DNA from: Candidatus Micrarchaeia archaeon
Lineage (GTDB): Archaea; Micrarchaeota; Micrarchaeia; Anstonellales; J096
Direction: 5' to 3'
Length of the DNA: 64,000 bases
Assembly: GCA_041500865.1 (NCBI GenBank)
Contig: JBGQMY010000001.1
Coordinates: 18,834-82,833, forward strand
Made by a program: the position numbers and the translations under genes
The notes under the pieces: generated by a model
The model's database searches: none
What the model was told of the DNA's origin: nothing
What the model saw: the letters and a program-made list of their open reading frames with translations, nothing else
Shown: positions 2,849 through 56,284 of the stretch, in pieces
Numbering within the stretch: position 1 is the first letter of the stretch
How the letters are laid out: each line of letters opens with the position of its first letter

Positions 2849-3310
2849 CTATTTATTTATACACTCCTGGAACGCCGCTATGAATGCCTTTGACTGCTCC
2901 GGATTGGCAATTATCATCATATGGGCTTCAGCAATAGCCCATTTTTCTGGGTCTGGATTTTTGCTGCCAAAGAAAGCGATTTGCAACGGCGTCCTGTTGG
3001 TCATATTGCCCCTGGCATTAATGTCTGCGCCGTGTTCAATCAGAAGCGCATAGGTTTCGGAATTTCCGCACCATGCTGCATAGTGCAGCGCAGTCCAGCC
3101 CCCCGCATCTGTTGCGTTTATCTCGGCCCCAAGCTCCAGGAGACGCATTACTTCCTTATTGTTGCCAACATTGGCATAATCCAGAAGCTCACTATTGAGC
3201 CGCGCCTGGCGCTCTGCCGTAAGCCTCGGCCTTTCGCTCGGCAGGCCCTCCCTCGGAAGCCTGGGCTTTGGACGATTTGGGGCCCTGCCGGCTTCAAGAC
3301 GCTCTGTCAT
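2849..3310 (-). CDS. ankyrin-repeat protein with a KPRLP N-terminal motif and a C-terminal F-x-x-F-Q-E-C-INK tail
   Basis: Two to three ankyrin repeats (GWTALHYAAWCGN..., LLIEHGADINA). Belongs to the paralog family described in the findings. Confidence 0.8.
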   Translation of the reverse strand: MTERLEAGRAPNRPKPRLPREGLPSERPRLTAERQARLNSELLDYANVGNNKEVMRLLELGAEINATDAGGWTALHYAAWCGNSETYALLIEHGADINARGNMTNRTPLQIAFFGSKNPDPEKWAIAEAHMMIIANPEQSKAFIAAFQECINK

Positions 3311-16834: not shown

Positions 16835-16920
16835 AGAACCAGTATATTCTCAAACAATTATAAACCTTGCCAAGAGAACCCATCCCTCAGGTTTATAAGC
16901 ATTTAACCTAAACTACGTTC

Positions 16921-16963
16921 ATGGCAAACATTCACGATAACAGGGGATACCGTGGCGGCAGGC
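16921..16963 (+). repeat. 43-bp direct repeat, right copy (native 5' end of the Nop5-like gene)
   Basis: Identical to 12821..12863. Confidence 0.9.
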
Positions 16964-31021: not shown

Positions 31022-31816
31022 TTACCTAAGATATGACCCTATGGGAGACGAGACACAGCCCAGAAACTCTTCAACGAACGGCCTTATTGTGTTTTTATTG
31101 AGAACATTGCGCACCTCCTTTTTTTCAAGGAATGTGTTCAGGAAGTTTATCTTGGCTGAGCTGTATTCCCATCCTTGTTTGTGCGCTCTGCGGAATGCAT
31201 CAAAAATAGATGTTCCAAGGCTTTCTTGGGAGCAGTCTGCGCCGTGGGATACGAGCATCGACACCATGGGCATCGACACATCAATTCTGCTGTTGCTTAT
31301 TGCCCAAAGCAACGGACGGTCTCCAAGGTTGGGGTTTGCGCCGGCCTCAAGAAGGGCGCTGGCGTTGTCCAGGCAGCCATTTTGTACGGCTAATGCAAGG
31401 GCCGTTTTTCCGGCACCGCACATTGCGTCCTTGTTTGCGCCGCATCCGATAAGGCACTTGACCACAAGCGTGTTTACTGACATGGAAGCGCTCATCAGCG
31501 GCGTGATGCCATCTTCGATGCTCATATTTACATCCGCCCCGTGCCTAACCAGGAGCGCACATATGTCAGGAAGCGGCTTTTGAACAGCCCTTGCAAGCGG
31601 CGTTGCCCCATATTCATCCCTTGCGTTGGGGTCTGTGCCAGCCTCAAGGCACGCCCTTGCGCCTTCATAATCGTCATTCTTTATTGTTCTGAACAGGCGG
31701 CTTGACTGTTCGGTTTTGAGGCTGTCAAGAATAAGCTCCCTTCCCCTGATTATGTCCTTCATTGGAACCGGGAGATTGGGGGTTTGCACTATGACCCTAA
31801 ACGACTTTTCTGCCAT
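31022..31816 (-). CDS. ankyrin-repeat protein with C-terminal FVEEFLGCVSS motif
   Basis: At least five ankyrin repeats. The internal start (MAEKSF) is preferred because the upstream extension is not protein-like. Confidence 0.75.
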   Translation of the reverse strand: MAEKSFRVIVQTPNLPVPMKDIIRGRELILDSLKTEQSSRLFRTIKNDDYEGARACLEAGTDPNARDEYGATPLARAVQKPLPDICALLVRHGADVNMSIEDGITPLMSASMSVNTLVVKCLIGCGANKDAMCGAGKTALALAVQNGCLDNASALLEAGANPNLGDRPLLWAISNSRIDVSMPMVSMLVSHGADCSQESLGTSIFDAFRRAHKQGWEYSSAKINFLNTFLEKKEVRNVLNKNTIRPFVEEFLGCVSSPIGSYLR

Positions 31817-31876: not shown

Positions 31877-32812
31877 ATGAAAGAGAGGGAAAAGCCTGCC
31901 AAAATCCAGAAAAAGGTCCGCGGACGGGTAATCCGGCCAATGTACATGCTTGAATCCAAAAGGGGGCGGGAACTGTATATCCGGCTCCATGACGCGCTTG
32001 TTGGGGTGCCGGGACATCCGGATTGGGAGAAGGCAAGGCAAGCCATCAACGCAGGGGCGGATGTTGAATGCGTCCTGAATGAGCTGTTCAAGACTCCGCT
32101 TATATGCGCTGCCATTTACGGCAATGCGGAGACATGCGCCCTTTTACTGAACAAAGGGGCAGAGATTGATGCCGTTGACAGTGACGGAAGCACTGCATTG
32201 ACATCGGCTGCCATCATGGGAGGGCTTGAGGTTTGCAGGCTTCTGATAAGGAAGGGCGCGAACGTGAATGCAGAGAACGGACATAGCACTGCCCCGCTTG
32301 CGTATGCGGCATCAGGCGGCTGGACGGAGATTTGCAGATTGCTTGTCTCAAAGGGAGCGGATATCAACAATGCCAATATTCTGGGATATACCGCACTCAT
32401 GTCTGCGGCAAAGCAGGGCAAGGCAGAGACGTGCAGGGCTTTGCTGGACATGGGCGCCGACATGGATATGGCAGACAATAGTAACAATACAGCGCCTGAG
32501 CATGCCGCAAGGGAAGGAAACCCGGAAACGTGCAAGGTATTTTTGGAAAGAGGATTAGATATCAATGCAAAACGCTATGAGTCGAGCCTGCTCATGTGCG
32601 CCGCAGACAGCGGAAACATGAAAACCTGCGTGTTCCTGCTTGAGAACGGCGCAGATGTGTCCTCAACAGATGGTCCTGGCCACACGGCGGCGTACATGGC
32701 ACAGGCCAATAACCACAATGCAGTATCGGGATTCCTCAAGCTTATGGAATCGCTTGGCGATGATTCGATAATGCCGTTCCTTTCGGAGTTCAGGGCATGC
32801 GTAAGCCAGTAA
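31877..32812 (+). CDS. ankyrin-repeat protein ending in FLSEFRACVSQ
   Basis: Eight ankyrin repeats. A GTTTATAATA box at about 31845..31854 supports a leaderless start at MKEREKP. Confidence 0.8.
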   Translation: MKEREKPAKIQKKVRGRVIRPMYMLESKRGRELYIRLHDALVGVPGHPDWEKARQAINAGADVECVLNELFKTPLICAAIYGNAETCALLLNKGAEIDAVDSDGSTALTSAAIMGGLEVCRLLIRKGANVNAENGHSTAPLAYAASGGWTEICRLLVSKGADINNANILGYTALMSAAKQGKAETCRALLDMGADMDMADNSNNTAPEHAAREGNPETCKVFLERGLDINAKRYESSLLMCAADSGNMKTCVFLLENGADVSSTDGPGHTAAYMAQANNHNAVSGFLKLMESLGDDSIMPFLSEFRACVSQ

Positions 32813-32842: not shown

Positions 32843-33436
32843 ATGATTGCGGACAGGCTCAGGGACTGGCTTAATGTGAAGCTGTTTTTTCCCATAGGCA
32901 AAATGCTTTATTTCCTTGATCCTAATCTTATGACTGCGCTGGCATATCCGCTTTGCGCGATTGCCGGATATTTCGTTTATGCAAAAGACTATCCGCTTGC
33001 GCTTGTTTTTGTCGTCCTTTCGTCCATTGTCGACAACCTTGACGGAGCGATAGCGAAGGCGAACAACAAAAAGACGTCGTTCGGCTCTTATTTTGACGCG
33101 ATGACGGACAGGATACAGGAATTCTTCATACTTCTGGGTTTTGCGCTTTCCGGCTATGCGGTTGAGGCGTTCGTTGCGATTGCGGCAAGTTTCATGGTGA
33201 GCTACGCGAAGGCCCGCGCGGAAATGATTAAGCCGCTCGGCAACATGGACTGGCCGTCAATCGGCGAAAGGGCGGAGAGGCTGATAATAGTGATGCTGGC
33301 GATGTTGGCCGCGATATTCTACCCGGTCGTTTATGGATACAATACAATAAGCGCAGGGCTGTGGATACTGGCGATTGTCGCGTTCATAGGGACGGTGCAG
33401 AGGTTCTTCTTCGCGAAGCAACTGCTTTCAAAATGA
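32843..33436 (+). CDS. CDP-alcohol phosphatidyltransferase family protein
   Basis: Signature D-x2-DG-x2-AR-x8-G-x3-D-x3-D (DNLDGAIAKANNKKTSFGSYFDAMTDRIQE) in a multi-transmembrane protein. Confidence 0.75.
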   Translation: MIADRLRDWLNVKLFFPIGKMLYFLDPNLMTALAYPLCAIAGYFVYAKDYPLALVFVVLSSIVDNLDGAIAKANNKKTSFGSYFDAMTDRIQEFFILLGFALSGYAVEAFVAIAASFMVSYAKARAEMIKPLGNMDWPSIGERAERLIIVMLAMLAAIFYPVVYGYNTISAGLWILAIVAFIGTVQRFFFAKQLLSK

Positions 33437-34117
33437 GACGCATTCCAGGAAATTCATTCCGAACGCCTTTGCGGCGTATTCTGGGAGTATGTTGTGCAGC
33501 TTAACGAAACGTATCATATAATGTCTTGCGTCCTTTCCGATTGCCAGATCCCACGCGCTATAACTGTCAACATCCCTCTTTATGTTCGGGTCGGCGCCTG
33601 CAGCAAGCAGAACCATTGCCGCGTTAATCATAGTCATGCGATCTAAAGAACTTCCGGCAACGGCTTCGTGGAGCGGGGTGCTGCCGTATCTGTCAGTCGC
33701 ATTAACATTTGCTCCTTTGGTTATCAAGATGCTGCATATATCTGCGCATCCAGACCCTGCGGCAAGGTGCAGTGCTGTACTGCCACGGCTAGTCTTTGCG
33801 GTAATGAACCGCTTTACGCCTCCATTTGATTTTGCGCATTGTTCTATAAGCAGTGCGCAGGTTTGGTAATATCTCTTATTTGCAGCAAGATGCAGGGCAG
33901 TCCAGCCTGTATCGTCCTTTGCTGTGATGTTTGCGCCTTTCCTTATGAGCTTCACTATTTCCTCGTTGTTGCCGTTCCACGCGGCGCTGCGAAGCGCTTT
34001 ATTGAGCCGCCTCTGCTCTTTTGTGGATAATATGATCATTTCGCTCGGCAGTATGTCCATTGCCAGCCTTGGGCTTGAAGGCAGAATCTGTTTGATTTGG
34101 CTTTTTTCCTGCGCCAT
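33428..34117 (-). CDS. ankyrin-repeat protein, array member 4, ending in FGMNFLECVSF
   Basis: Ankyrin repeats. The start ATG directly follows the TAG of the upstream array gene. Confidence 0.8.
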   Translation of the reverse strand: MAQEKSQIKQILPSSPRLAMDILPSEMIILSTKEQRRLNKALRSAAWNGNNEEIVKLIRKGANITAKDDTGWTALHLAANKRYYQTCALLIEQCAKSNGGVKRFITAKTSRGSTALHLAAGSGCADICSILITKGANVNATDRYGSTPLHEAVAGSSLDRMTMINAAMVLLAAGADPNIKRDVDSYSAWDLAIGKDARHYMIRFVKLHNILPEYAAKAFGMNFLECVSF

Positions 34118-34684
34118 CTAGCCACCGCCCGATATGCATCCCTTGAATCCGGAAAGGAATTCCTTGAGGGATTTATTTCCAATCAGTTGCTGCAAAAACT
34201 CCATATTTTCAAGAAATAGGGCTGTGGCGGTGCTTTTCTGCTCTAGGGCAATCATGCGCGCAGTCCTTTTGAGATTGTCCCTTGCGCCGACATTTGCGCC
34301 TTTTTCAATCAGCAGTTTGCAGATTTTCGTATGGCCCTTGTATGCGGCAACCATGAGCGCGGTCCAGTTGTAGCTGGTCTTTGCCTCGATATCCGCGCCA
34401 TTTTCAATCAGGAGGGTGCAGATATCAAACTGCTCCTGTATTGCGGCCTTCATGAGCGCAGTAATCTCCTTAAGCGCATCCCTTGCGTTCGGGTTTGCGC
34501 CTTTGCCCAACAGAATCTTGACATCTTTTATCCGACCATACCTGACTTTCTGGAAAAGATCATCATTCAGCTGCTCTTGCGTCATTTCGCCAAACATAAT
34601 CCCATCTATTGCATACTTATGCTTGACAAGCCTTGGCTTCTCTTGTACGGGCATATCCTTCGGGAGATTCTTTAGCTGCGCCAT
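34118..34684 (-). CDS. ankyrin-repeat protein, array member 3, ending in FLSGFKGCISGGG
   Basis: Ankyrin repeats. N-terminal MAQLKN...EKPRL. Confidence 0.8.
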   Translation of the reverse strand: MAQLKNLPKDMPVQEKPRLVKHKYAIDGIMFGEMTQEQLNDDLFQKVRYGRIKDVKILLGKGANPNARDALKEITALMKAAIQEQFDICTLLIENGADIEAKTSYNWTALMVAAYKGHTKICKLLIEKGANVGARDNLKRTARMIALEQKSTATALFLENMEFLQQLIGNKSLKEFLSGFKGCISGGG

Positions 34685-35233
34685 TCAGGCACCGCCCCAT
34701 ATGCAATCCAGGAAGCTCTTTCCGAACGGGATTGTGTTACTGCCAATCAGCTCTTTTGTGTCCTCAAAATGGACGAGCGCAAGCCTCATCTTTCCCCTTC
34801 CGTTGGCAAAGTCCCATGCGTTGTTCGCCTCGCGGCTGCAAGTTTCGTAGATGTCGGGGTCTGCCCCATGGAAAACCAGCAGCAACGAGGCATCATAGTG
34901 GTTGTTGATTATGGCAGCCATAAGCGCATTGTAGCCATTGCTGTCCTGCTGGTTGGCGTTTGCCCCGTTTTTGAGAAGAATCCTGCATATGTCCGTACAG
35001 CCCTTGGAGGCGGCGATGGAAAGCATTGGCTGACGCTGAAACGGCTTGCCATTGGACTTTGTATTAGGGTTTGCGCCTTCCTTGATGCATCTGGAGACAA
35101 GGGAAACGTCCCCGGTCTTTACGGCATATTCAAGCGAATAATCCGCCAGGTCCTGCTTATCAGAATCAGTTGTTTTGAGCTTGGCAAGGTTTGGCTTCTT
35201 TTGCTGGTCTTTTTCCTGCTTTTGGAGCTGCAT
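34685..35233 (-). CDS. ankyrin-repeat protein, array member 2, ending in FGKSFLDCIWGGA
   Basis: Ankyrin repeats. Confidence 0.8.
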   Translation of the reverse strand: MQLQKQEKDQQKKPNLAKLKTTDSDKQDLADYSLEYAVKTGDVSLVSRCIKEGANPNTKSNGKPFQRQPMLSIAASKGCTDICRILLKNGANANQQDSNGYNALMAAIINNHYDASLLLVFHGADPDIYETCSREANNAWDFANGRGKMRLALVHFEDTKELIGSNTIPFGKSFLDCIWGGA

Positions 35234-35893
35234 TCAGGCACCACCCACGCATTCGCGGAAGGATTTCGTGAATGAAACCATTCCCTCTTGCCCTAGGGAC
35301 CTGCGCATGCGGTTAAAGAAAATCAGCAAACCTGCGACTTCGGGATGTTCGGCCCATACTGCCCTGCGCCAAGGCGCCCAGCCTTTTTTGTCCTTTGCTG
35401 TCATGTCGGCGCCGTTTTCAATCAGCAATGCGCATACGTCAATGTGCCCGGCCCAGGCTGCGCAATGGAGCGGCGTGTTGCCATCTTCGTCCTTTGCATT
35501 GACATCCGCTCCTTTGCTTATCAAAATGGCGCAGGCGCGGGCGTTTCCGCCGTTTGCGGCATGGTGCAGGGCCGCACTGCCGTGATTGTCCTTTAGCTCC
35601 ATGTCAGCGCCGTTTTCAATAAGCGCTGAACAGGCTTCCGGGGTGCCGTGCTTTATCGCATAATGCAGCGGCGTCTGGCCGTCCTTGTCCGTAGCATTGA
35701 CATTTGCTCCGTCATGAATGCTTTGCTGGATTCGTTCAATATCTCCATCAAGTGCGCCATTGAACAGCGCATTGGTCCTAAGAAGCTGGCCGTAGTCCTG
35801 CGGCTTTGGGCTTTTTTCCAGCAATGTTTCATCAGGCAGCCTGGGCTTCTGGGGCTGGGAACCGCTTTTTCCTGCTTTCCGGCTTTCCTGCAT
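35234..35893 (-). CDS. ankyrin-repeat protein, array member 1, ending in FTKSFRECVGGA
   Basis: Ankyrin repeats. N-terminal ...QKPRLP. A TATA-like box lies about 27 nt upstream, at roughly 35914..35925. Confidence 0.8.
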   Translation of the reverse strand: MQESRKAGKSGSQPQKPRLPDETLLEKSPKPQDYGQLLRTNALFNGALDGDIERIQQSIHDGANVNATDKDGQTPLHYAIKHGTPEACSALIENGADMELKDNHGSAALHHAANGGNARACAILISKGADVNAKDEDGNTPLHCAAWAGHIDVCALLIENGADMTAKDKKGWAPWRRAVWAEHPEVAGLLIFFNRMRRSLGQEGMVSFTKSFRECVGGA

Positions 35894-35933
35894 GCTTCCG
35901 CTTATTGCAACAGACCTGTTAAAAACCTATCCG

Positions 35934-35994: not shown

Positions 35995-36588
35995 ATGGCC
36001 AATGAAACTTTCGCAAGAGGGGCGGAAAGGCCCGGAAACAGAACGCTTTCTTATGGCAAGGAACCTCTTTTTGACAGCCAAACGAAGCGCTGGCAGGATA
36101 GCGCGCTCCTAGTAGCAGTGCGCAACAGGAGCGTGGAAAGCGCGCTAATGGCAATAGACAAAGGCGCAAGCATAGACACAAAGGACATAAGCGGCAGCAC
36201 TGCGCTGATGATAGCGGCTGAAAGCGGTGATGCGGCTATGTGCAGGGCTCTTCTGTGCAAAGGGGCCGACATTGAGGCAAGGATGATAAACACCGATATC
36301 GGGCTCGGGACGTGCGAAACCGCGCTGATAACTTCGGCAAAGCACGGCAAAAAAGACGTTTGCATCCTTTTGCTGGAAAAAGGCGCAGACCCAAACGCAA
36401 AAGACAGGTACAAGACAACTGCGCTCATGTATGCTGCGCAGTTGGGGCATCCGGACGTTTGCACGGCCCTGCTGGAGCATGGGGCGGACCCGCGCCTAAA
36501 GGACGTGAACTTAATGACTGCGCTCCAGCTTTCAAGGAATGGCGCAAGCGAGGCCATACAGGAATACCTTGCCCATTTTAAAGTGTAA
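35995..36588 (+). CDS. ankyrin-repeat protein without the Cys-containing tail
   Basis: Five ankyrin repeats. Ends in ...EYLAHFKV. Confidence 0.8.
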   Translation: MANETFARGAERPGNRTLSYGKEPLFDSQTKRWQDSALLVAVRNRSVESALMAIDKGASIDTKDISGSTALMIAAESGDAAMCRALLCKGADIEARMINTDIGLGTCETALITSAKHGKKDVCILLLEKGADPNAKDRYKTTALMYAAQLGHPDVCTALLEHGADPRLKDVNLMTALQLSRNGASEAIQEYLAHFKV

Positions 36589-38106: not shown

Positions 38107-40899
38107 ATGCCTGGATTCAAGGACTTGGGCAACGCAACCTGGCTCATGGAAAAGGAAGGAATCATGCGGGTTCCTGCAGTCATAATCGGCACAAAGGCCT
38201 TGGTTGACGCCATGAGCAAGGACAGGACAATCGGCCAGCTCAGGAACATGGCATCATTGCCAGGAATAGTCAAGAACGCAGTGCTTATGCCAGACGGCCA
38301 CGAGGGCTACGGCTTCCCGATAGGCGGGGTTGCGGCTTTTGACAGCGAAGAAGGCATCGTTTCACCGGGCGGAATCGGATATGACATAAATTGTTTGCTT
38401 CCAAAAACGAGAATAACGAACGCGTATGGATATTATCGGAATATTGAAAACTATCAGTCTTACTTTTCAAAAAAATATGAAAAGAACGGGGTTTTATTGT
38501 TTGATGGAATGACAAGGATAAGTAGCGGAAGGAAATACGGAAATGCAACACATTACATGCACAAGAGATATTCCGGAAAAATCTATGAGATAACTGCCAT
38601 GGCCGGGAAGATAAAAGCTACGCCAGACCATCCCTTTATCACAAAAAAAGGGAAAATGCTGCCTGGGCATTTGAAAAGGAATGACTTCATACTATCCTAT
38701 CCTTTTGAAGGCATCCGCTATAGAAGATATTGCAAAAATGAGGATGAACTGGCGATTTACGCCAAACTTATAGGATATGCCACTGGAGACGGCAGCATAA
38801 CATCAGGTAATGGCAAGAGAAGTGTCCGGTTCTATAGCAAATACAAGAATGACCTTGAAGATATATTAAGAGATATAGAAAAGCTGGGGTATAATGGAAG
38901 TATATTTGAAAGGACCAGAAAGCATGATATAAATGGAAAAAAATTTACATCAACATCATTTGAGCTTGTGGTATATGCTAAGAAATTTGCCGAAAAAATG
39001 CTGGAATTTGGCTGTATAGAGGGACTCAAAACAGAAAAGGATGTTAGGGTGCCCAAATGGATAATGAAAGCGCCGTTGTGGATAAAACGATTGTATCTTG
39101 CCGCATTTTTTGGCGCGGAGATGTCTTCGCCAAAAACGTCAAGCAAAACCGGATTTTATATGCCGCAGATCAGCCAAAATAAGATAAAGTCCAAGGAAGG
39201 GAGCCTCAGGCAATTTTTTAGCGATATTTCAGAGATGCTGGATGAATTTGGGGTCAAAACAAACAAGGTAAGCTTTGTCGAAAAGATAAAATCAAAAATC
39301 AGATTGAGGATTATTCTTGGCGGAAGCGAAAATGACATAGAAAGACTTTATTCAACCATAGGCTTTGAATATAATGAGGAAAGGATGTTCAAGGCGCTTG
39401 CGGCCATTCTTTATATACGGATGAAAAGGCTGCATCGGCAAAAAAGGGAAGAAACAAGGAAAATGGCGCAAAAATACAGGAAAGCCGGAATTGGTCTGAA
39501 AAATGTCCAGAAAAAACTTGTTTCAAAATGGGCAAATTCCAGATTCATAGAAAGGGCATATTATGAAAACGTTTCTCCAAGAGCGCCATTGGATATCCAA
39601 AGCTTTAATGAATTTGAAAATCACCAGAAAAAGATATACAAAAAATATGGCGCACTTGAAGATATAGTGTTGGACATCAAAACAAGCGAGTATTCTGGAA
39701 AAGTATATGACTTCAGTGTTGAGAAGATGCATAAATTTGTAGCTAATGGCATATTGGTATCAAACTGCGGCGTCCGCCTGCTCAAGACCGGGCTGGAAAA
39801 GGGCGAGGTTGAAGAAAAGAGGCGCGACATAATAGAGTCAATATTCCACGAGGTGCCAAGCGGCGTAGGCAGTGAAAGCGACAACAGGATGACGGTTGAA
39901 TCGCTGGACAGCATCGCGGAGCTTGGGATGGACTGGGCAATTGACAACGGCTATGCAGAAAAATCCGAAAAAGGGAGGATAGAGGAATACGGCAGGATGG
40001 AAGGCGCAGAGCCGTCAAAGACGTCTGCGACTGCAAAGGCAAGGGGAAGGCGGCAGGTGGGAACGCTTGGCGCAGGCAACCATTTCCTTGAAATCCAATA
40101 CGTTGAAAAAATCCTGTATCCGGAGATTGCAAAGAAATTCGGGCTTCATGAAAATCAGGTGGTCATGATGATCCACACGGGCTCAAGGGGATATGGCCAC
40201 CAGATAGCGTCAGATTACATAAACGCGATAATGAGGGAAGGCCTGCCAAAAGGCATCCCCGACCCGGAGCTTGCATACGCAAAACTGGGAAGCAAGGTTG
40301 CGGACGATTACCTTTCGGCAATGAAGTGCGCGGTCAATTTCGCGTTCGTGAACAGGCAGATGATAACGCACAACGTGAGGAATGCGTTCAACAAGGTATT
40401 CGGCAACGTTGAGCTGGAGCTGCTTTACGACGTGGCGCACAATATAGGGAAATACGAGAAGCACAGCGTTGACGGGAAAAACAGGGAGCTGTTCATACAC
40501 AGGAAAGGCGCTACAAGGGCGTTCCCGGCAGGCAGGGAAGAGCTCCCTTCAATATACAGGGAAACCGGCCAGCCTGTCATAATCCCAGGCTCAATGGGCA
40601 CCGCAAGCTACGTGCTGGTCGGCGAGCAGAAAGGGCTGGACGTAAGCTTTGGCTCAACGTGCCATGGCGCAGGAAGGGCGCTGAGCAGGCATGCGGCGAT
40701 ACGGGAGTTCAAGAGCGACAATATAATAAAGCAGCTTGCGAAAAACGACATCTATTTCAGGTCGGATTCCAAAACCGCGGCATCGGAGGAGGCGCCTGGC
40801 GCGTACAAGGACATTGACGAGATAGTAAAATCGGTGGAATTGGCAGGCATAAGCAGGATTGTCGCAAGGCTGAGGCCGATTGGCGTTGTGAAAGGCTAA
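38107..40899 (+). CDS. rtcB: RNA-splicing ligase RtcB interrupted by a 458-aa intein (extein 472 aa)
   Basis: N-extein ...SPGGIGYDIN. C-extein CGVRLL...NHFLEIQYV...HTGSRGYGHQIA...CHGAGR contains the RtcB metal-binding motifs. Confidence 0.9.
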   Translation: MPGFKDLGNATWLMEKEGIMRVPAVIIGTKALVDAMSKDRTIGQLRNMASLPGIVKNAVLMPDGHEGYGFPIGGVAAFDSEEGIVSPGGIGYDINCLLPKTRITNAYGYYRNIENYQSYFSKKYEKNGVLLFDGMTRISSGRKYGNATHYMHKRYSGKIYEITAMAGKIKATPDHPFITKKGKMLPGHLKRNDFILSYPFEGIRYRRYCKNEDELAIYAKLIGYATGDGSITSGNGKRSVRFYSKYKNDLEDILRDIEKLGYNGSIFERTRKHDINGKKFTSTSFELVVYAKKFAEKMLEFGCIEGLKTEKDVRVPKWIMKAPLWIKRLYLAAFFGAEMSSPKTSSKTGFYMPQISQNKIKSKEGSLRQFFSDISEMLDEFGVKTNKVSFVEKIKSKIRLRIILGGSENDIERLYSTIGFEYNEERMFKALAAILYIRMKRLHRQKREETRKMAQKYRKAGIGLKNVQKKLVSKWANSRFIERAYYENVSPRAPLDIQSFNEFENHQKKIYKKYGALEDIVLDIKTSEYSGKVYDFSVEKMHKFVANGILVSNCGVRLLKTGLEKGEVEEKRRDIIESIFHEVPSGVGSESDNRMTVESLDSIAELGMDWAIDNGYAEKSEKGRIEEYGRMEGAEPSKTSATAKARGRRQVGTLGAGNHFLEIQYVEKILYPEIAKKFGLHENQVVMMIHTGSRGYGHQIASDYINAIMREGLPKGIPDPELAYAKLGSKVADDYLSAMKCAVNFAFVNRQMITHNVRNAFNKVFGNVELELLYDVAHNIGKYEKHSVDGKNRELFIHRKGATRAFPAGREELPSIYRETGQPVIIPGSMGTASYVLVGEQKGLDVSFGSTCHGAGRALSRHAAIREFKSDNIIKQLAKNDIYFRSDSKTAASEEAPGAYKDIDEIVKSVELAGISRIVARLRPIGVVKG
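38392..39765 (+). mobile_element. intein with a LAGLIDADG homing-endonuclease domain inserted in RtcB
   Basis: Begins with Cys, ends in SN, followed by extein Cys. Two LAGLIDADG blocks (LIGYATGDGS and LYLAAFFGAE). The insert is about 33% GC against about 55% in the exteins. Confidence 0.85.
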
Positions 40900-40902: not shown

Positions 40903-43900
40903 TCAAAACGTTAGTTTGAAATACACGCTTACACCCCAGTTGTTGGGATTGAGCCTCTGCCTGGACATGTAGTTCCATGACCAGATGTCAGTACTGTAAT
41001 ACGGCAGCGGGCCTGTGCCCCCTGCAACGCCTATGCCCCATTCGTTCGGCAGCCTCGTGTGGGTGTATTCCGCCCCAAGGCCTATATAATCCCTGGCATC
41101 CATGTACCTTCCATAAGTCAGGTGGAACTGGAGCTTGCCTCCGACCTGGTTGACGTCAACCCAGGCGCGGTCCAGCCCGGCCGTCACCGACCAGTCCTTT
41201 TCCGTCTGAAAGGTGTCAGGCGCGATTATCAGCTTATGACGTTTCCTGTCAGCAAACACATACCATGCAGTTGCTGCATGCTCTACAAGCGTGGGCGCCT
41301 CTACAGTCGTCCCGGTTATTATTACTTGCCACTCGTTCAGCTCCGCGTCGTTCATCCTCTTGGTTCCTCCGACTAGCCCCAGTATGATGTCGGACTTTGC
41401 GGTCCTGCTCTGGTCGTCATTCTGCCTCAGGAATTTCCAAAGCAGCTGCCCGCTGCCGCCCCTTGTCGCAACAGCGGTTCCGGACACGTTCTGGTCGACC
41501 ATGAGCGTAGGCCCGCCCAGAACCCTGAACCGGTCCTTCAGGCCGCCGCCCAGGAACAGGTCCGGGTAGAACTCGCCCTGCGTGCCCCTCAGCGTTGAGG
41601 TGATGCCCTCAAGCCAGCCTTTGACATTCTGGTTTGCGTCGCTGAAGAATAAATATCCTCTCATGCTCGCGCTCCTTGCCTCAAGGTCCGTTGCCCCGAC
41701 AAGGTAGAACTTGCCGTCAACCCCCATGCCAAGCGCGTAGTTCTGCACATCCTTGGACTTGAGCTGGTCAGCGACTTCCTGGATTGCTGCTTTGTATATT
41801 ATCGCAGCTTCTTGGGGATTTAGCGTCGCCTGCTCTTCTGCATTCGTGATGGTCTGGTTTATGCCGTTCATCCATTGCGGCACCTTCTCGCCTGCGGCGA
41901 GCATGTTGAACCTGTGGGCCCAGACAATCAGGGTCGCCATCCCGTATCCCTGCTGCTCAAGGTCGCCCATCTGGTCCCTGACCATTGAATACATGTAGGT
42001 TCCGGAAACGAACGCCCCTGTGTTTTGCGCGTCGTTCCTCTTCCAGCCATAGACGTTGGTGAGGAAATTGGACATGTTTGACTGCAGCCCAAGCAGCTGC
42101 GTCTCGTCTATTCCGCTGTAAACGAGCGTTCCGCCAAGGCCGCTGAGGCCGGCCATTTTCTCTGTCTTTACCTGCAGGCCGCCCACATTGCTTCCTCCCA
42201 ATACCGCTATTACTGCAGCGGACTTTGAGATCTCAGCAGGCACATACCTGTACTTTAGCTCAATGTTGAAGTTGTATTGCTCATTCCCTATGGAGGTTCT
42301 CCTGTACGTGCCGATTACCGCGTCGTCCTTGTTGAACACGTTTGACTTGGACAGGCTTGCCGCCTGCTCGTTGGCCACCGTGCTCAGGCTGTTCCCGTTC
42401 CTAAGGACTATCTGGTTCCATAGGCCTGAGGCTGCGACAGTCCCTGCAGTGAAGCCCACAGCGGCACCGTTGAATGGCGCGTCCTTGTCCGGTATGTACG
42501 TTTTCAGGCTCGCAAGCACGTTGGTTGCGTTCGCCTCGCCGAACTGGTAGTTCATCAGCTTGTCCCTTGTGTCGGTGCCCATCCTGACCTCGTAGGCATC
42601 GCCGCCCTTTGTGACCCAGTACCAGCCCTCCTTTGTCCTTGAGTCCTTGTCATACGGGGAAAGCCCCCAGTTGCCCGTGAAATACGTAAGCATGTCCCCT
42701 TTGTCCTTTGCGACAGGGGCGAAAAGCCTGGCTGCCTCGGTTGCCATGTTCCTTTCCTCATAGGTTCCGGCTGCCGTTGCCGTGTTGACGTTGAAGCCCA
42801 TGTTGACCTTGCTGGCGTCAATGTCATGTGTCATGATGAAATTGTCGCCGGTCTTGCCGCCAGTCACTTCCGTTGTCACTCCGCCGCCGGCGCCGGTCTT
42901 TGCCACGCCCCTTGCGCCGACCTCGACGTACCTGTTCGCGGCCCCGAACCCGCCCTCCATGGAGCCGCCTATCCAGTCATTGTAATACTGTTCGTTGCCG
43001 TACCTTTTCGCGAATATCTTGTTCAGTTCCGTTATCAACGTATTGACATGCGCCCTCTCTATCCGGGCCATCTGCGGTACAGGCGGCCTGAAGTTGTTTC
43101 CTGGCGGGTTTAGCTCCGCATTGAGCCTGTTGTATATGTCAAAGGCGCCTTGCATCAGCAAAGGCATGGACCAGGAGAAGTAGCCGTTGTGGTAGTTCGC
43201 CTGGTTCGGCATGAGGCTCAGCGTCCTGTACTGCATAGGCACGTTGAGCATCGGGAAATAACTCCCCATCTTCGTCATCTCAGACTGTTTCACGTCATAA
43301 TAATACGGGCTCTCGTACGTCCTTGTCTTGTTCCAGATGTCATAGAAGAGGTCCTTGTGCGTGACGTTCGCCACCGGTATTCTTGGAAGGTCAGCGGAGA
43401 TGGCTCTGAACCTCGAAAGCATGTTCTCCCTTTCTGTCATGTTGAAGACATTTTTGCTGAGCCTGGTCTGCAGTTGGGCGCCGAATGTCGCGAAAAACAG
43501 CTGCACGTCGGTGTCTGCATTGGACAGCTGGGCAAACGCCGGAACGACGTAATGCAGGTATCCTGCAATTAGGTACGGGTCCCTGGTTGAAAGCGTCATT
43601 ATGTTCTCCATGAGCCCAGCATATGTCTTGGTGTCCGTTAGGCCCTTTGCCTCCAGGGCGTCGAGCGCGCCTCCAAGGAGCTTTACGTCCATGAGCGTCA
43701 TTATTGAGAATGCCTTGTCAATCGCCAATGCCTTTGACGAAAGCGAGTCCTCTGTCATGCCGCCTGTGCCCTGGTAGTAATTCATTACCTTGGACTTCAG
43801 GGCCTGGAACCTGCTCTTGTCGGATGAAAGCGCGTCGTAGTTCTGCGATATCCACTTGCCGAGCTGGACGGGATTAGATATTCCAAGCGCATCGCCGAGC

Positions 43901-46622: not shown

Positions 46623-47173
46623 AACTGCTTTTCGCGACGCACAACAAGGGGAAGCTTGCAGAGGCGCGGCAAATCCTTGGCCAGAAGGGGGTTGAGATAG
46701 GGCACCTTGAGGTTGAGTATGGCGAGCCGCGCGGGGAGGACACTTCCGAGATAGCGCGCAAGAGCGCTGAGCAGCTTTATCCGATCGTGAAAAAGCCGCT
46801 TTTCCTTGACGACAGCGGGCTTTTCGTTGATGCGCTGAAGGGATTTCCTGGGCCTTATTCCGCTTTTGTCTATAAAAGAATCGGATATGCCGGCATACTT
46901 AATTTGCTTAGCGGGAATTCCAACAGGAAGGCATATTTCAAGTGCTCAATTGCATATGCTGACGAAGACGGCGTCAAGGTTTTTGACGGGACAGTAAACG
47001 GCGGCATATCAAATGCGCCAAGGGGAGATGACGGATTCGGCTATGACCCTGTTTTCGTGCCTGACGGATTTTCCGAGACGTTTGCTGAGATGGATGACAA
47101 GGAGAAGAACGCGATTTCGCACAGGGGAAAGGCATTGGCCCTGTTCGCGGAATGGGTGGCAAAGAAGGATTAG
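46619..47173 (+). CDS. non-canonical purine NTP pyrophosphatase (Ham1/RdgB/ITPase)
   Basis: FATHNKGK N-terminus, FVPDG, and the SHRG C-terminal motif. ATGA overlap with glyS. Confidence 0.85.
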   Translation: MKLLFATHNKGKLAEARQILGQKGVEIGHLEVEYGEPRGEDTSEIARKSAEQLYPIVKKPLFLDDSGLFVDALKGFPGPYSAFVYKRIGYAGILNLLSGNSNRKAYFKCSIAYADEDGVKVFDGTVNGGISNAPRGDDGFGYDPVFVPDGFSETFAEMDDKEKNAISHRGKALALFAEWVAKKD

Positions 47174-47943
47174 GCGGCGAGGCAATCGCTGAAGGATTTC
47201 ATGAATGGGCTGAATGCTTCATTCCCAACCATTACCTCAAGCAATTTGGACGCAAGGAACTCCATGGGCAAGACATGCCCGCTCAGTATGGCCATGCCCA
47301 ATGGCGTATTGCCTGAATTGCTCCTTATGGCGATATCGGCGCCGTTTTCCATCAGCAGGGCGCAAGTCCTGGTGTCGATGTTGGTTGCGGCATAGTGCAG
47401 TGGCGTCATTCCGGCATAGTCTTTTGAGTTGATGAGCTCTATTACGTTTCCGCCTGCTTTTGCGTATTCTTCTATCAGCAGTTTGCAGATGTCGGTATTT
47501 CCAGACGCTGCGGCACGGTGAAGGGCTGTCTTGCCGGCATTGTCCTTTGCGTTCACGTCCGCTCCCTTTTCAAGCAGTAAAGCGCAGGTCTCGGTATGTC
47601 CGTTCGCTACGGCATACATGAGCGCAGTTGTACCATAATTGCTCTTTGCGTTCACGTCCGCTCCGTTCTTTATCAGCATGGTGCAGGTGTCGGTGTGTCC
47701 GTTCACTGCGGCAAGCATGAGCGCAGTCCAGCCGTCCTTGTCCTTTGCCTCGATGGTTGCGCCTTTCTTGATGAGCCGCTCTATCTCATTGATATTGCTA
47801 TTCTTTGCGGCGCTGATGAGTTCATCATTGAGTTTCTTCTGCGCTTCTTCTGGCACTTTTGGCTTCTCGCTTGGCAAAATATCGGCTTTATGGTTTATTG
47901 GTTTCTTTGTTGTACTCTTTAGGCTCCGCTTCCTTTCCTGCAT
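47170..47943 (-). CDS. ankyrin-repeat protein ending in FMKSFSDCLAA
   Basis: Six ankyrin repeats. The internal start MQERKR is preferred because the upstream extension overlaps the divergent MBL gene and is not protein-like. Confidence 0.75.
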   Translation of the reverse strand: MQERKRSLKSTTKKPINHKADILPSEKPKVPEEAQKKLNDELISAAKNSNINEIERLIKKGATIEAKDKDGWTALMLAAVNGHTDTCTMLIKNGADVNAKSNYGTTALMYAVANGHTETCALLLEKGADVNAKDNAGKTALHRAAASGNTDICKLLIEEYAKAGGNVIELINSKDYAGMTPLHYAATNIDTRTCALLMENGADIAIRSNSGNTPLGMAILSGHVLPMEFLASKLLEVMVGNEAFSPFMKSFSDCLAA

Positions 47944-47994
47944 GCATCCATCGTGCGGCAAAGGGATTAAAATGCTATTGGGCAATGAGATTCC

Positions 47995-48579
47995 ATGGAC
48001 GAAGTCAAGGTTCTTGTTGAAGGCTATGCCAGGAGGATGAAAAACGGCTGGGCGGCAAGCTCCGCAGCTATATTGGTAAGAAGCAGCGGCAAAACGATAA
48101 TCGTTGACCCTGGCTGCAACAGGCAAAGGCTGATGGGCGCGCTGAAAAGGGAAAGGCTCAGGACCGGCGATATTGATTTTGTTTTTCTCACGCACAGCCA
48201 TTTTGACCATTCCATGCTTGCCGGCATATTTGAGAATGCGAAAGTGATTGACTGCGAGGAGATTTTCGACGGCGACATGCAGGTCTCCCATCACGGGGCC
48301 ATACCTGGAACAGGACTGAAAATAATCCAGACGCCGGGCCACACCGACGACCATTGCTCGCTGCTTGCAAACACGGAAAAAGGCGTGTGCGCGATAGCCG
48401 GAGACGTCTTCTGGTGGGAAGAAGGCGAGAGGCAGTCAATTGACATAGGCAAGCCTGACGCCGCGCATCCCAGCGACGTGAAAAAACTTGCAAAAAGCAG
48501 GAAAATGCTGCTGGAAAGGGCGGACTGGGTAATACCGGGCCATGGCGGGCCGTTTAACACAAAGGGACGGCCAGATTGA
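47995..48579 (+). CDS. MBL-fold metallo-hydrolase
   Basis: Metallo-beta-lactamase metal-binding motif LTHSHFDH (HxHxDH) with downstream His and Asp ligands. Confidence 0.75.
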   Translation: MDEVKVLVEGYARRMKNGWAASSAAILVRSSGKTIIVDPGCNRQRLMGALKRERLRTGDIDFVFLTHSHFDHSMLAGIFENAKVIDCEEIFDGDMQVSHHGAIPGTGLKIIQTPGHTDDHCSLLANTEKGVCAIAGDVFWWEEGERQSIDIGKPDAAHPSDVKKLAKSRKMLLERADWVIPGHGGPFNTKGRPD

Positions 48580-49288: not shown

Positions 49289-49294
49289 TAGCCT

Positions 49295-55300: not shown

Positions 55301-55691
55301 GAACACGATAGGCGAGATAATCAGGGGCAGGAATGCGCTGAACCCTTCAGTGATGATAATGTACATAACGGATTTCGGGGACAACGCCGGTGACCTGGAA
55401 GGCGTAGTTTCGGCCACAAGGCAATTCGGGACGTTTGCCAGAAAATACAGGGCAGATTCCAAGACTGTCAATTACATCTCCAACGACGCGGGCATAGCCA
55501 CGCTGTTCGTTGTCCCGGACGAGCACAGCGACAGCGACGACATAATGGGCGCGGTTGAAAGGGCGACAAGCGGGGCCGTTGTCAAGTTCACCGGCGAGAA
55601 CGAGAGGGACGTTCTTGACAAGATGAACGCGCTCAGGCCCGTCCTTGAGGGGCTCAGGGCAAGCAACGTGGCTGAGAAGGCTGAAAAGTGA
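52314..55691 (+). CDS. large VWA-domain protein with MIDAS motif, HExxH motif and K/E/G-rich low-complexity linker
   Basis: HEWGH at aa 458-462 (nt 53685..53699). K/E/G-rich linker at about aa 716-800. C-terminal VWA domain with MIDAS motif DTSGS at aa 893-897 (nt 54990..55004). This is the AAA+ partner architecture seen in CobT, ChlD and NorD. Confidence 0.75.
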   Translation: MAQSAFDVMKEEPTQRKGGPRERKRLMESSGLGTAGMEKGVRLFTDYGAFTDFASRFNGDVVTAYEAAKQGTVEEAGRIAEDLFPTKGNRATFGKAVRKFCDDSFSMLFAMVLMEGQLDRNYTAHVESALSQRAKNLMSFIRDFEDMKSPERMRERVISTIGTFKDEFPFALMQQLDKFEAGVRKGAYDDMLAQISKAYMETRMGEQKGFEAYFFINYRENAFFDIITLAMENSAMGMIKKDDMLAMFRRESPEQVFLFPSLFVPIYGADEFMRLRAGKVVADIPIDDGLRAVLSEQEMWKDIPIRPAEQVIPPLGNVAQLIRDMPSANVDAVSRAEANTLPPQEMKSFIFRRMAERKISPVLDVVPSGCSIGERDRIRANASTRTVQYGVNDTFPEMDMGIGISIMFHHLSDRMKFVNRMENALGYTDGAGIYLFPYYSRMPTRDLNAYLLFNVGRHEWGHISMGSFEYTAGNVPKIDLFAPLERDASYAKRYEEKGKENIAQLQEFINGIMRSVDAELSKRENGKATLREIYKTIDGTIKSHYKKEEHSKNPYIKRFYEYFGTELYRHIDNVIDDYRIDRSFYDGKGRDEILYEMGVAETDKLRKIYRVSTYLRAMNRAVSMHEQFKEEPNKSNAVDTLFLRTILDEKSFSELVGPSVDPLFRDICEIAMSEVYKGADTPRRVNEVMCASMEFMALAMIFDDAIKPPKVVRQKKKGEGGEKGGEKGEKGEGEQQGGTPKEDLDKEKGEKEKGGKGDKKGDKGDEDEGQGDSLIDKDQDGNVNINKDDKKVEGREKEVENLNAAEKHGYETIEVRAEKVEMFKQFFRDLRIDRMVIITELGKRGARVDVDELVKFMYRKGAREATFLEKKVMETDVGSHLEARPIDIYIGVDTSGSMTGDSGRMKNSKRISLEMLAGYNEVAAEMRSANIRLHLISVATEGDHIAIRDWDATKGLMVEKKGDFYSISYKFSEINGATDLPAMITQFQSFVEEIKKNTIGEIIRGRNALNPSVMIMYITDFGDNAGDLEGVVSATRQFGTFARKYRADSKTVNYISNDAGIATLFVVPDEHSDSDDIMGAVERATSGAVVKFTGENERDVLDKMNALRPVLEGLRASNVAEKAEK

Positions 55692-56284
55692 TGGCAACCA
55701 GGATACGGCAAGCCAACCAAGGGGGCGGCGGGACAGAGACTGTATTAAATCTTGCGAAGCCTGAGCCAGATAAAAATCCAAATGCTTTTGCATCCAAGCC
55801 GGATACAGACAAAGAGGCGCTTTCGGCAGAGAATATGGATATTCTTACCGACGCGCTTATTTTTGAGATACGGCATGGCGGCATAAAAAACGTAAATTAC
55901 AGGCTTAGTGAAGGAGCCGACCCGAACAGGACAGACAAGGAAGGCATCTTGCCGATGGCAGCGGCAGTTTGCGTAAATAAAATCAATGTATGCAGGCTGT
56001 TGCTGAAAAAAGGGGCGGATGTAGATGGCAAGGACAGGCGCGGCTGGACTGCGCTCATGTATGCCGCCTGGGCCAACAACGCGATGATGTGCAGGTTTTT
56101 GCTGGGCCATGGGGCAGACGCCCTGATAATGGACAAAGAGAAAAATTCAACATACGGCCTGCCGAATGAAAAGGAAACGAAGGCACTGTTGAAGATGTTT
56201 GCATGGAAAAGCAAGGCCCTGAAAAGCCTGCTCAGTGGCAGGATTGGGGCGTTCAAGGAGCATTTTGGGCTCTGCGTTTCTTGA
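55691..56284 (+). CDS. ankyrin-repeat protein translationally coupled to the VWA gene, ending in FKEHFGLCVS
   Basis: TGATG overlap with the VWA stop. The track ORF begins with GTG at 55688. Confidence 0.75.
   Translation: MATRIRQANQGGGGTETVLNLAKPEPDKNPNAFASKPDTDKEALSAENMDILTDALIFEIRHGGIKNVNYRLSEGADPNRTDKEGILPMAAAVCVNKINVCRLLLKKGADVDGKDRRGWTALMYAAWANNAMMCRFLLGHGADALIMDKEKNSTYGLPNEKETKALLKMFAWKSKALKSLLSGRIGAFKEHFGLCVS

Follow-up and report, generated by a model that had tools for sequence, protein, structure and literature searches.

Zero-spaced, diverged ankyrin genes of a Micrarchaeota archaeon form a probable operon translated by termination-reinitiation

Why should neighbouring ankyrin genes that differ over most of their length meet at nearly identical stop-start junctions? 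The question is raised by four minus-strand ORFs in the genome of a Micrarchaeota (DPANN) archaeon that adjoin without spacer, an arrangement reported in a first-pass annotation and borne out here by both the ORF list and the junction strings. The window (the whole 64-kb stretch of DNA that was analysed) carries the following features at this locus.

35234..35893, minus strand: cassette a1, ankyrin protein of 219 aa, C-terminus ...FRECVGGA, then TGA
34685..35233, minus strand: cassette a2, ankyrin protein of 182 aa, C-terminus ...FLDCIWGGA, then TGA
34118..34684, minus strand: cassette a3, ankyrin protein of 188 aa, C-terminus ...FKGCISGGG, then TAG
33428..34117, minus strand: cassette a4, 229-aa ankyrin protein closing the array, C-terminus ...FLECVSF, then TGA, with no Gly-Gly tail
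35919..35925, minus strand: TATA-like box TTTTTAA, −32 to −26 from the a1 ATG, putative promoter element
35239..35245, minus strand: Shine-Dalgarno (SD)-like GGTGGTG within the last three a1 codons (Gly-Gly-Ala), ending 5 nt before the a2 ATG
34690..34696, minus strand: SD-like GGCGGTG within the a2 Gly-Gly-Ala codons, ending 5 nt before the a3 ATG
34123..34129, minus strand: SD-like GGCGGTG within the a3 Gly-Gly-Gly codons, ending 5 nt before the a4 ATG
33428..33436: tail-to-tail overlap of 9 nt between a4 and the CDP-alcohol phosphatidyltransferase gene
32843..33436, plus strand: CDP-alcohol phosphatidyltransferase gene (Pfam PF01066), convergent with the array

All four cassettes matched Pfam Ank_2 (E-values 1e-16 to 2e-44; 61.6–150.6 bits against a cut-off of 27.3), and with profile matches above curated cut-offs, a1 to a4 are ankyrin-repeat proteins (Pfam Ank clan). 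Their ORFs occupy a single reading frame of 822 codons, with three internal stops and a final stop. The 9-nt overlap at the far end reads TCATTTTGA for a4 (Ser-Phe-stop) opposite TCAAAATGA for the phosphatidyltransferase gene (Ser-Lys-stop), and the same 9-nt overlap is found in three related lineages (L002, L005 and L008). The phosphatidyltransferase gene is a conserved synteny anchor, with 78–83% identity in three array-bearing relatives; it is not claimed as a member of the operon.

The explanation we favour, at a probability of about 0.8, is that the array is one operon of anciently duplicated small ankyrin genes translated by termination-reinitiation. Transcription would start about 26–32 nt downstream of the TATA-like box, and the polycistronic mRNA from which a1 is read would have no leader or almost none. 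For genes 2 to 4, a ribosome terminating at the abutting stop would reinitiate on the adjoining ATG, and an SD (GGUG/GGAGG) 5 nt upstream of that ATG would aid the start of each later gene. As this SD lies inside the upstream ORF, a Gly-Gly-x extension would be forced onto the upstream protein. That there is one mRNA, that its start is leaderless and that translation is coupled we infer from sequence. The encoded proteins likely serve as protein-binding modules produced at fixed ratios, probably to interact with a host cell.

Read in order along the minus strand, the junctions are GGTGCCTGA followed by ATGCAG, GGTGCCTGA followed by ATGGCG, and GGTGGCTAG followed by ATGGCG, and some 30 nt are close to identical although the cassettes are dissimilar elsewhere. 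The C-x-x-GG tail described in the first-pass annotation fits C-I-W-G-G-A and C-I-S-G-G-G but not the first tail, C-V-G-G-A, which has one residue between the Cys and the Gly-Gly. Each junction would combine the last part of a conserved C-terminal helix (F-x3-F-x2-C-[IVT]-S), an SD coded as Gly-Gly-[Val/Ala/Gly], the stop codon, and an ATG opening the family-typical Met-Ala-Gln start. Spacing was 0 nt at 19 of 19 junctions of homologous arrays in six lineages, the window included. A 39-nt spacer after a1 of L002 was a gene-caller artefact; the ATG there adjoins the stop and opens a Met-Ala-Gln-Glu start. By a crude gene call, the window has 34 same-strand neighbour pairs, with zero spacing in two of the 31 non-ankyrin pairs (8643/8644 and 51925/51926) and a −4 overlap (n = 5) as the commonest short spacing outside the array. 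The zero-spaced ankyrin junctions are more than a chance occurrence. A metagenome scan with the a1 orthologue alignment, in which one back-translated pattern was a generic ankyrin motif, recovered 80 loci of unrelated ankyrins (35–49% identity) that are of use only as a negative control; none of the 80 carried the junction motif, and none the F..C tail.

The stop codons at the 19 junctions are TGA in nine cases and TAG in ten, with no TAA, compared to 35 TGA, 13 TAG and 11 TAA among ordinary window genes, so that TAG is over-represented at junctions (10/19 vs 13/59). The TAA absence and TAG excess are not accounted for by the operon and coupling explanation. An alternative genetic code was rejected, since ordinary long ORFs of the window end at each of TGA, TAG and TAA.

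A distance of −8 to +6 nt between genes is considered indicative of termination-reinitiation, and in both Haloferax and E. coli reinitiation dropped steeply with growing distance (PMC10666635). The 0-nt junctions fall within this range, and, as in coupled pairs, an SD-like motif in the 3′ end of the upstream ORF is suitably spaced for the start codon that follows. The uniform 0-nt spacing, in place of the usual −4 overlap, would be best explained by inheritance: if new cassettes arose from recombination between existing junctions, the junction architecture would have been copied with them.

The Gly-Gly-x tail is best read as the SD site of the next gene. SD-type tails were found in all 19 internal genes, i.e., those followed by an abutting cassette, and in none of the 15 terminal or isolated family members (Fisher p = 5e-10, a value that overstates independence because the lineages share descent). 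Most internal tails are GGx; the variants are Ala-Glu-Gly-Ser (coded by GCGGAGGGTAGC), in which the SD (GGAGGGT) is kept and the Gly-Gly lost, and Ser-Gly-Gly-Gly (coded by TCAGGAGGCGGC). In W_a4 and L5_a5, each the final gene of its array, the protein ends are CVSF and CILS; their orthologue L2_a5, which is followed by an extra cassette, ends CVSGGS. This is in effect a natural experiment, the GGx tail being gained only in the genome with an extra following cassette. GGT is the rarest Gly codon in window genes (3.8%, 58/1541) and is the penultimate Gly codon at 13 of 14 junctions (3/3 in the window), an enrichment that reads as nucleotide-level selection.

Pairing of the tails with the anti-SD was predicted using an assumed archaeal/bacterial consensus, the 3′ end of this organism's 16S rRNA lying outside the window. 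Under this assumption the a1, a2 and a3 tails gave duplexes of −9.4, −9.3 and −10.3 kcal/mol, of which the first is reached by 2.6% of coding 20-mers and the last by 0.9% of background 20-mers, and on average internal genes were predicted at −7.6 kcal/mol, first genes at −2.0 and the coding background at −3.9. SD-like 4-mers at −18 to −4 precede 11 of the 17 non-ankyrin internal genes of the window but only 5 of its 38 first genes (p = 2e-4), and most first or isolated genes have TTTAAA or TTTTTAA about 25–32 nt upstream of their ATG, as does a1. The a1 gene has a TATA-like box without an SD, the internal cassettes have a strong SD without a TATA, and the same split between leaderless-type and SD-type starts is seen across the window. 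A non-ankyrin pair (49295-51925 and 51926-52300) shows the same layout (...GGGGCGGTCTGA followed by ATGGCA), suggesting that zero-spaced, SD-bearing junctions are not special to ankyrins.

No TATA-like hexamers were found inside the array, and few would be expected in 2.5 kb. A scan for bacterial-type promoters and terminators gave counts equal to the shuffled expectation and is ill-suited to archaea. The Rfam scan returned two tRNAs only, and no RNA element within the array. RNA structure at the three junctions did not exceed that of shuffled sequence (z = −0.49, +0.56 and +0.75), and a hairpin hiding the SD gains no support from these folds.

It is possible, although unlikely, that the junction serves mainly as a recombination substrate, with unequal crossing-over keeping the junctions alike and shuffling or amplifying cassettes for ankyrin diversity. 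The first-pass annotation had leaned this way, proposing repeated unequal crossing-over of a cassette unit bounded by the conserved tail and start. Syntenic arrays occur in five related Micrarchaeota lineages besides the window, and the three complete ones have 2, 5 and 7 cassettes as against 4 here; whole cassettes have been gained or lost between these relatives, the extra ones always sitting exactly between zero-spaced junctions. One of them, L2_a6, resembles the N-terminal half of an a4-type cassette (49% over 116 aa) and may be a partial duplicate. The a1 protein begins MQES at the head of an array and MAQQES or MAQES behind another cassette, an extension by Ala-Gln or, in one lineage, by Ala only. 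These observations, and the roughly 30 nt of near-identity at the junctions of dissimilar cassettes, count in favour of recombination.

The cassettes themselves speak against continued exchange. Paralogous cassettes share 28–37% protein identity, and those of the same genome are no closer to each other than to cassettes of other genomes. At the nucleotide level, likeness outside the junctions is low, limited to about 70% identity over ankyrin-consensus stretches of about 120 nt, which is the very result that the first-pass annotation had named as telling against its proposal. By these measures the four cassettes are old, diverged paralogues and not recent copies. Orthologues of a1 are 81, 69, 63, 58 and 58% identical to that of the window (P0002 to P0006, the last named Candidatus Micrarchaeota archaeon). 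Positional orthologues show 81/63/58% identity for a1, 37–43% for a3 (43% for L5_a3 and 37% for L2_a4) and 46–50% for a4; a2 is the fastest-diverging cassette and has no clear orthologue, its best match to any cassette being at most 31%. Neighbouring genes are 72–94% identical between the window and L002, and the internal cassettes diverge far faster than these. Cassettes are positional orthologues across genomes, and the retention of position while a1 has fallen to 58–81% identity points to slow turnover; neither concerted evolution nor shuffling still under way left a visible trace. The high nucleotide identity, mosaics and greater similarity within than between genomes that mark a diversity array were not seen, L2_a6 being the one possible partial duplicate.

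What remains of the recombination proposal is the cassette as a unit of a tandem family, with the conserved tail and start as its boundary, and the zero-spaced junction kept at every gain, which fits unequal or illegitimate recombination at that point; repeated, ongoing shuffling was not seen, and the idea that it generates ankyrin diversity finds no support. The SD, stop, start and protein motif account for the conserved bases, and the GGx disappears exactly where no gene follows. Junction likeness is probably due to selection on function, namely the SD coded in the tail together with the conserved helix motif. On this reading the look-alike junctions are an ordinary coupling device and not a generator of diversity.

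A scan of genomes from the phosphatidyltransferase anchor found two distant Micrarchaeota-like genomes (anchor 60–61% identical) without an adjoining ankyrin array, and otherwise recovered only a Lake Pavin MAG. Among the species genomes searched, the array appears confined to a narrow clade.

We consider it very improbable that nucleotide conservation is secondary and that the Cys motif, the Gly-Gly tail or both act as a protein-level signal, such as CaaX-like lipidation, processing or conjugation. The Cys is invariant in all tail-bearing family members and lies exactly four residues from the end in 10 of the 15 terminal or isolated genes (CVSF, CVSQ, CINK, CLAA, CISF twice, CILS, CTSS, CTSQ and CTQN), and the Gly-Gly is mostly kept as amino acids. 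However, three of the four array genes break a strict C-a-a-X box, with Cys at −5 in a1 (CVGGA) and at −6 in a2 (CIWGGA) and a3 (CISGGG); only a4 (CVSF) fits by position, and the a2 position of its box is Ser. Terminal orthologues lack the Gly-Gly, the rare GGT codon is selected, and the AEGS tail retains the SD when the Gly-Gly is gone. The AlphaFold2 model of a3 (mean pLDDT 84) predicts a disordered segment (residues 1-31), the paired helices of the repeat region (36-148) and two further helices (152-168 and 170-185). In this model F176, F180 and C183 fall on helix 170-185 with a spacing of i, i+4, i+7, which suggests that the F-x3-F-x2-C residues share one helix face and have a packing role. 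To our knowledge, neither a eukaryotic host nor an archaeal CaaX prenyltransferase is known for Micrarchaeota. A search for homologues of the tail by itself gave 14 candidates having words in common with the query, none at E ≤ 10. A profile search with the C-terminal tails and three full-length orthologues retained the full 219 positions and so amounted to a general ankyrin search (687,786 matches) that was uninformative on the spread of the tail.

A related and equally doubtful idea is that this private ankyrin family is a fast-evolving host-interaction battery in which the Cys-x-x-x end is a CaaX-like signal, swapped for an SD in those genes that are not last in their operon; if so, modification or anchoring would be confined to the final product of each operon. 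Least credible is that the in-frame junction stops are recoded or, as the first-pass annotation suggested, read through to give fused multi-ankyrin proteins: the 822-codon frame and the lack of TAA at 19 junctions might invite it, but the shared frame follows automatically from zero spacing, TGA and TAG interchange at orthologous junctions (after a1, TGA for the window, L002, L005 and L094 but TAG for L008 and L095), all three stops end ordinary window genes, the junctions lack stable flanking RNA structure (z −0.49 to +0.75), and every cassette has its own ATG, SD, disordered N-terminus and C-terminal helix.

The array is part of a larger set of ankyrin genes in the window.

35995..36588, plus strand: ankyrin gene D, 197 aa, divergent from the array, without the F..F..C tail, with its own TATA-like box
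31022..31816, minus strand: family member B, outside the array, 264 aa if begun at the 31816 ATG, tail FLGCVSSPIGSYLR
31877..32812, plus strand: family member C, 311 aa, outside the array, tail FRACVSQ
2849..3310, minus strand: isolated family member, 153 aa, ankyrin repeats and tail FQECINK
47170..48354, minus strand: isolated family member, 394 aa, ankyrin repeats and tail FSDCLAA
55691..56284, plus strand: family member, 197 aa, ankyrin repeats and tail FGLCVS

Gene D is 88% identical to its L002 orthologue, and the ankyrin gene at 55691..56284 closes a tightly packed gene row (48752-56284). Ankyrins make up at least 10 of the approximately 59 genes in the 64-kb window, a dense, lineage-specific expansion in a clade of freshwater-sediment Micrarchaeota. 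A full-text search of one literature collection for ankyrin with Micrarchaeota or DPANN found no paper on such an expansion.

If the operon reading is correct, the array shows cleanly, in nature, how a signal for translation can dictate the sequence of a protein: the next gene obtains its ribosome-binding site at the cost of a Gly-Gly-x extension of the upstream protein, which comes and goes in orthologues with the following gene. Annotators should avoid taking such tails for protein motifs or for evidence of recoding. The ankyrin genes are candidates for studies of host interaction in DPANN archaea. The current understanding of the mechanism is unchanged by these findings.

In CaaX-box effectors such as Legionella AnkB, a Cys stands fourth from the C-terminal end, behind an ankyrin domain, and the terminal and isolated members of the present family share this outline. 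The family differs in that the Cys of a1 to a3 is at −5 or −6, the a2 position of the box is usually Ser, and the Cys is predicted to lie on a helix face with two Phe. Expansions of ankyrin-repeat genes are known from symbionts and intracellular bacteria, e.g., Wolbachia, Legionella and sponge symbionts, and here too a host-dependent organism of small genome size carries numerous short ankyrin genes that diverge quickly. Known relatives of this archaeon attach to other archaea, not eukaryotes; the proteins of this family combine a C-terminal F-x3-F-x2-C helix specific to the lineage with an N-terminus that is basic and disordered, and a secretion signal or system was not identified here. Archaeal start signals, in Sulfolobus and others, follow a pattern of leaderless first genes and SD-led internal operon genes, of which the array is an instance with no substantive difference, inferred from sequence only.

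Also comparable are the termination-reinitiation pairs, which have been linked to proteins that a cell requires at set proportions (Huber et al. 2019, PMC6728339; Huber et al. 2023, PMC10666635). The ankyrin junctions resemble them in joining same-direction neighbours inside −8 to +6 nt, in having an SD-like motif inside the upstream ORF, at its 3′ end, and in their conservation across species. Coupling here is read from the sequence; none of the 19 junctions departs from a spacing of 0 nt, whereas −4 or −1 overlaps dominate other genomes and the remainder of the window, and the genes joined are paralogues of one family, not different subunits.

Four abutting minus-strand ORFs make up the array, and the ORF list places them exactly where the first-pass annotation had drawn them:

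a1: 35893-35234, minus strand, ankyrin cassette of 219 aa
a2: 35233-34685, minus strand, ankyrin cassette of 182 aa
a3: 34684-34118, minus strand, ankyrin cassette of 188 aa
a4: 34117-33428, minus strand, ankyrin cassette of 229 aa

All four share a single reading frame and encode ankyrin-repeat proteins (Pfam Ank_2, E-values 1e-16 to 2e-44). The junctions, where a stop abuts the next ATG, read as previously described on the minus strand (...GGGTGGTGCCTGA/ATGCAG, ...GGCGGTGCCTGA/ATGGCG and ...GGCGGTGGCTAG/ATGGCG), but the C-x-x-GG tail attributed to them needs amending for the first, C-V-G-G-A, which has one residue rather than two between the Cys and the Gly-Gly. The a1-specific peptide HCAAWAGH or the DNA pattern TCNGGTGGTGNCTRRATGGC could serve as a search key for further genomes of this clade. 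The 3' end of the last cassette, a4, overlaps that of the convergent CDP-alcohol phosphatidyltransferase gene by 9 nt (window 33428-33436; TCAAAATGA / TCATTTTGA), Ser-Phe-stop on one strand being Ser-Lys-stop on the other, and this overlap is also present in the related loci L002, L005 and L008.

Syntenic array loci in relatives were recovered by exact-protein look-ups of a1 orthologues. An RtcB/methyltransferase pair bounds them at one end and the convergent CDP-alcohol phosphatidyltransferase gene at the other.

Homologous array loci: identity of a1 to that of the window, and cassettes present
L002: 81%; 7 cassettes
L005: 63%; 5 cassettes
L008: 58%; 2 cassettes and a second pair on the opposite strand
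L094: 69%; short contig, a1 abutted by cassettes on both sides
L095: 58%; short contig, a1 abutted by cassettes on both sides

Spacing is zero at all 19 junctions of the window and these five loci. This count includes a junction of L002 with an apparent gap of 39 nt, where an ATG directly abutting the stop opens the usual MAQE start.

Nine ankyrin genes of the window have in common a private C-terminal F-x3-F-x2-C motif. Five of the genes carrying this tail lie outside the array (B, 31022-31816, minus strand; C, 31877-32812, plus strand; 2849-3310; 47170-48354; 55691-56284), and it was found on none of 80 unrelated ankyrin loci checked. In an AlphaFold2 model of a3 (mean pLDDT 84), a disordered, basic N-terminus (residues 1-31) precedes the ankyrin repeat helices (36-148) and two additional helices (152-168 and 170-185). 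Three residues of the tail are invariant, F176, F180 and C183; they fall on the last helix at i, i+4 and i+7 and would therefore share a single face of it, an arrangement suggestive of packing and not of a free signal. By position, the Cys could have a CaaX-like role in 10 of the 15 family members without an abutting downstream gene (window a4, C, 2849-3310 and 47170-48354; L002 a6; L005 a5; L008 x0, a2, b2 and c). The Cys lies exactly four residues from the end in these, and the endings (CVSF, CVSQ, CINK, CLAA, CISF, CILS, CTSS, CTSQ and CTQN) are CaaX-like by position. The same role fails in a1-a3, whose Cys residues are at -5 or -6. An N-terminal K-P-R-L-like motif contains a Pro that is invariant family-wide. 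Within the disordered basic N-termini, K-P-R-L (often followed by ..H-K) is found in a1 and a3 types, and D-I-L-P-S-E in a4-type cassettes (W_a4, L2_a5, L5_a5) and in L2_a0, L2_a3 and L2_a6; both may be docking motifs.

Alignment of all family members showed that genes with an abutting downstream cassette end ...F-x-x-C-[IVT]-x-G-G-x-stop, while those with nothing abutting have a stop three residues past the Cys (CVSF, CVSQ, CISF, CILS, CTSQ and others) or other endings. This tail was present in 19/19 genes followed by an abutting cassette and in 0/15 without one, the latter never ending in Gly-Gly. For example, the a4-type protein ends CVSF in the window and CILS in L005, where it is the last gene, and its orthologue in L002, which has an extra cassette after it, ends CVSGGS. 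The Gly-Gly-x codons spell GGTGGTG, GGCGGTG or AGGTGGT, and the penultimate Gly codon is GGT at 13 of 14 junctions (3/3 in the window), although only 3.8% of Gly codons in the window's genes are GGT, the lowest share of any. One tail (GCG GAG GGT AGC, or AEGS) has dropped the Gly-Gly and kept the nucleotide signal GGAGGGT, and another spells the canonical TCAGGAGGCGGC. The motif ends 5 nt upstream of the ATG. All this would be expected of a Shine-Dalgarno (SD) site lying within the upstream ORF. The position rule, the codon bias and the AEGS variant all speak against the Gly-Gly acting at the protein level. Stop-codon read-through, raised in the first-pass annotation, is not supported: stop identity varies at orthologous junctions, TGA, TAG and TAA all terminate ordinary window genes, and the junction RNA is unstructured. 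The 19 junction stops, which are phylogenetically non-independent, comprise no TAA, nine TGA and ten TAG, against 11, 35 and 13 for window genes overall; the TAG excess may come from shared descent of junction types.

As paralogues, a1-a4 are old. The near-identical junctions had been ascribed to unequal crossing-over of a cassette unit, but an all-against-all comparison found protein identities of only 28-37% among a1-a4 and low nucleotide similarity outside the junctions, matches being confined to ankyrin-consensus stretches (~70% over ~120 nt). This is the very outcome that the first-pass annotation had set as the one that would refute its proposal. Best matches follow positional orthology: W_a1 = L2_a1 = L5_a1 = L8_a1 (81, 63 and 58%), W_a3 = L5_a3 = L2_a4 (43 and 37%) and W_a4 = L5_a5 = L2_a5 (50 and 46%); W_a2 has no partner above 31% among the cassettes compared. 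Within a genome, no paralogues are closer to each other than orthologues are; concerted evolution is therefore absent. The flanking genes are 72-94% identical between the window and L002, so the internal cassettes have been diverging much faster than the genes around them. Entire cassettes have been gained or lost several times (L2_a0, L2_a2, L2_a6, L5_a4), with the junction intact each time. Ongoing shuffling as a source of ankyrin diversity fails on this orthology and divergence, while the origin of new cassettes by recombination at existing junctions survives. The a1 N-terminus fits such recombination: the protein begins MQES when its gene heads the array, and MAQQES or MAQES when another cassette lies upstream. 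L002 also carries a tandem duplicate of the B-type ankyrin gene (15621-16430 and 16479-17285; 67% identical). In contrast to the coupled, zero-spaced array, these copies are separated by 48 nt and lack the Gly-Gly tail, and upstream of each is an AT-rich stretch, possibly with a TATA-like box of its own.

Starts were also compared on a crude gene call of the window, and the signals used across it agree with the SD reading. SD-like 4-mers at -18 to -4 occur in 11/17 non-ankyrin genes closely following another gene and in 5/38 first or isolated genes (p = 2e-4). With an assumed anti-SD (GAUCACCUCCU), random coding 20-mers have a mean predicted pairing energy of -3.9 kcal/mol; first genes pair more weakly (mean -2.0), internal genes more strongly (mean -7.6), and the three ankyrin junctions reach -9.3 to -10.3 kcal/mol. 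First genes carry TTTAAA or TTTTTAA ~25-32 nt upstream of the ATG, the place expected for an archaeal TATA box in the case of leaderless transcripts, and a1 has TTTTTAA at -32 to -26 (35925-35919). The layout of the array is not unique in the window, as an unrelated pair (49295-51925 / 51926-52300) has a like one (...GGGGCGGTCTGA/ATGGCA).

At least 10 of the ~59 genes in the 64-kb window encode ankyrin repeats (2849-3310, 31022-31816, 31877-32812, 33428-35893, 35995-36588, 47170-48354 and 55691-56284), and the array indicates a dense expansion of ankyrins in one Micrarchaeota clade; a full-text search of a paper collection (ankyrin with Micrarchaeota or DPANN) found no paper on such an expansion. 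Archaeal housekeeping genes in the window include intein-containing RtcB, LonB, dimeric-type GlyRS and GlmS, and the closest named a1 relative (P0006, 58% identical) is from a "Candidatus Micrarchaeota archaeon" MAG (Lake Pavin sediment, GCA_026396375.1). This identifies the window as a piece of a DPANN archaeal chromosome.

RtcB (38107-40899; G+C is low, 0.42, in the 38-40 kb region) is 930 aa with its intein (NCBIfam intein-containing RtcB, 914 bits), whereas the syntenic L002 and L005 proteins are 472 aa without one; the intein is therefore present in some lineages of the clade and missing in others. A low-G+C island (12001-16000, especially 14135-16834; 0.38-0.43 against ~0.52 elsewhere) encodes an 899-aa protein that partly matches BREX PglX-type adenine methyltransferases, with every match under the curated cut-offs, and this is probably an acquired restriction or defence gene. 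A tight same-strand row of five genes (48752-56284; gaps 6, 0, 13 and -1 nt) encodes a 178-aa unknown, an 876-aa AAA/STAND-like NTPase, a 124-aa unknown, a 1125-aa protein without family match and a 197-aa ankyrin of the F-x3-F-x2-C tail family, and may be a functional module recruiting an ankyrin. No Pfam or NCBIfam match was found for the proteins of 40903-45060 (1385 aa), 52314-55691 (1125 aa) and 61136-63625 (829 aa). The first is syntenic in relatives; its L002 and L005 counterparts are 87% and just 41% identical, so it is fast-evolving.

The feature is real and conserved, and has an ordinary explanation. On the best-supported reading, a1-a4 would lie on one polycistronic, leaderless or nearly leaderless mRNA, with cassettes 2 to 4 translated through SD-assisted termination-reinitiation; we infer this coupling, and take the array to be an archaeal operon with coupled translation, built from one lineage-specific subfamily of ankyrins. 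It neatly illustrates how an SD site imposes a Gly-Gly-x extension on the C-terminus of the protein encoded upstream. Exactly 0 nt at every junction is unusual, since the predominant spacing elsewhere in the window, as in the literature, is -4. This uniformity is best explained by inheritance, new cassettes arising when existing junctions recombine. In Haloferax volcanii and E. coli, reinitiation drops steeply as distance grows, and -8 to +6 nt is taken as the range indicative of termination-reinitiation (PMC10666635). Such pairs are enriched among genes with complex-forming products (PMC10666635), and the a1-a4 products may likewise form a complex.
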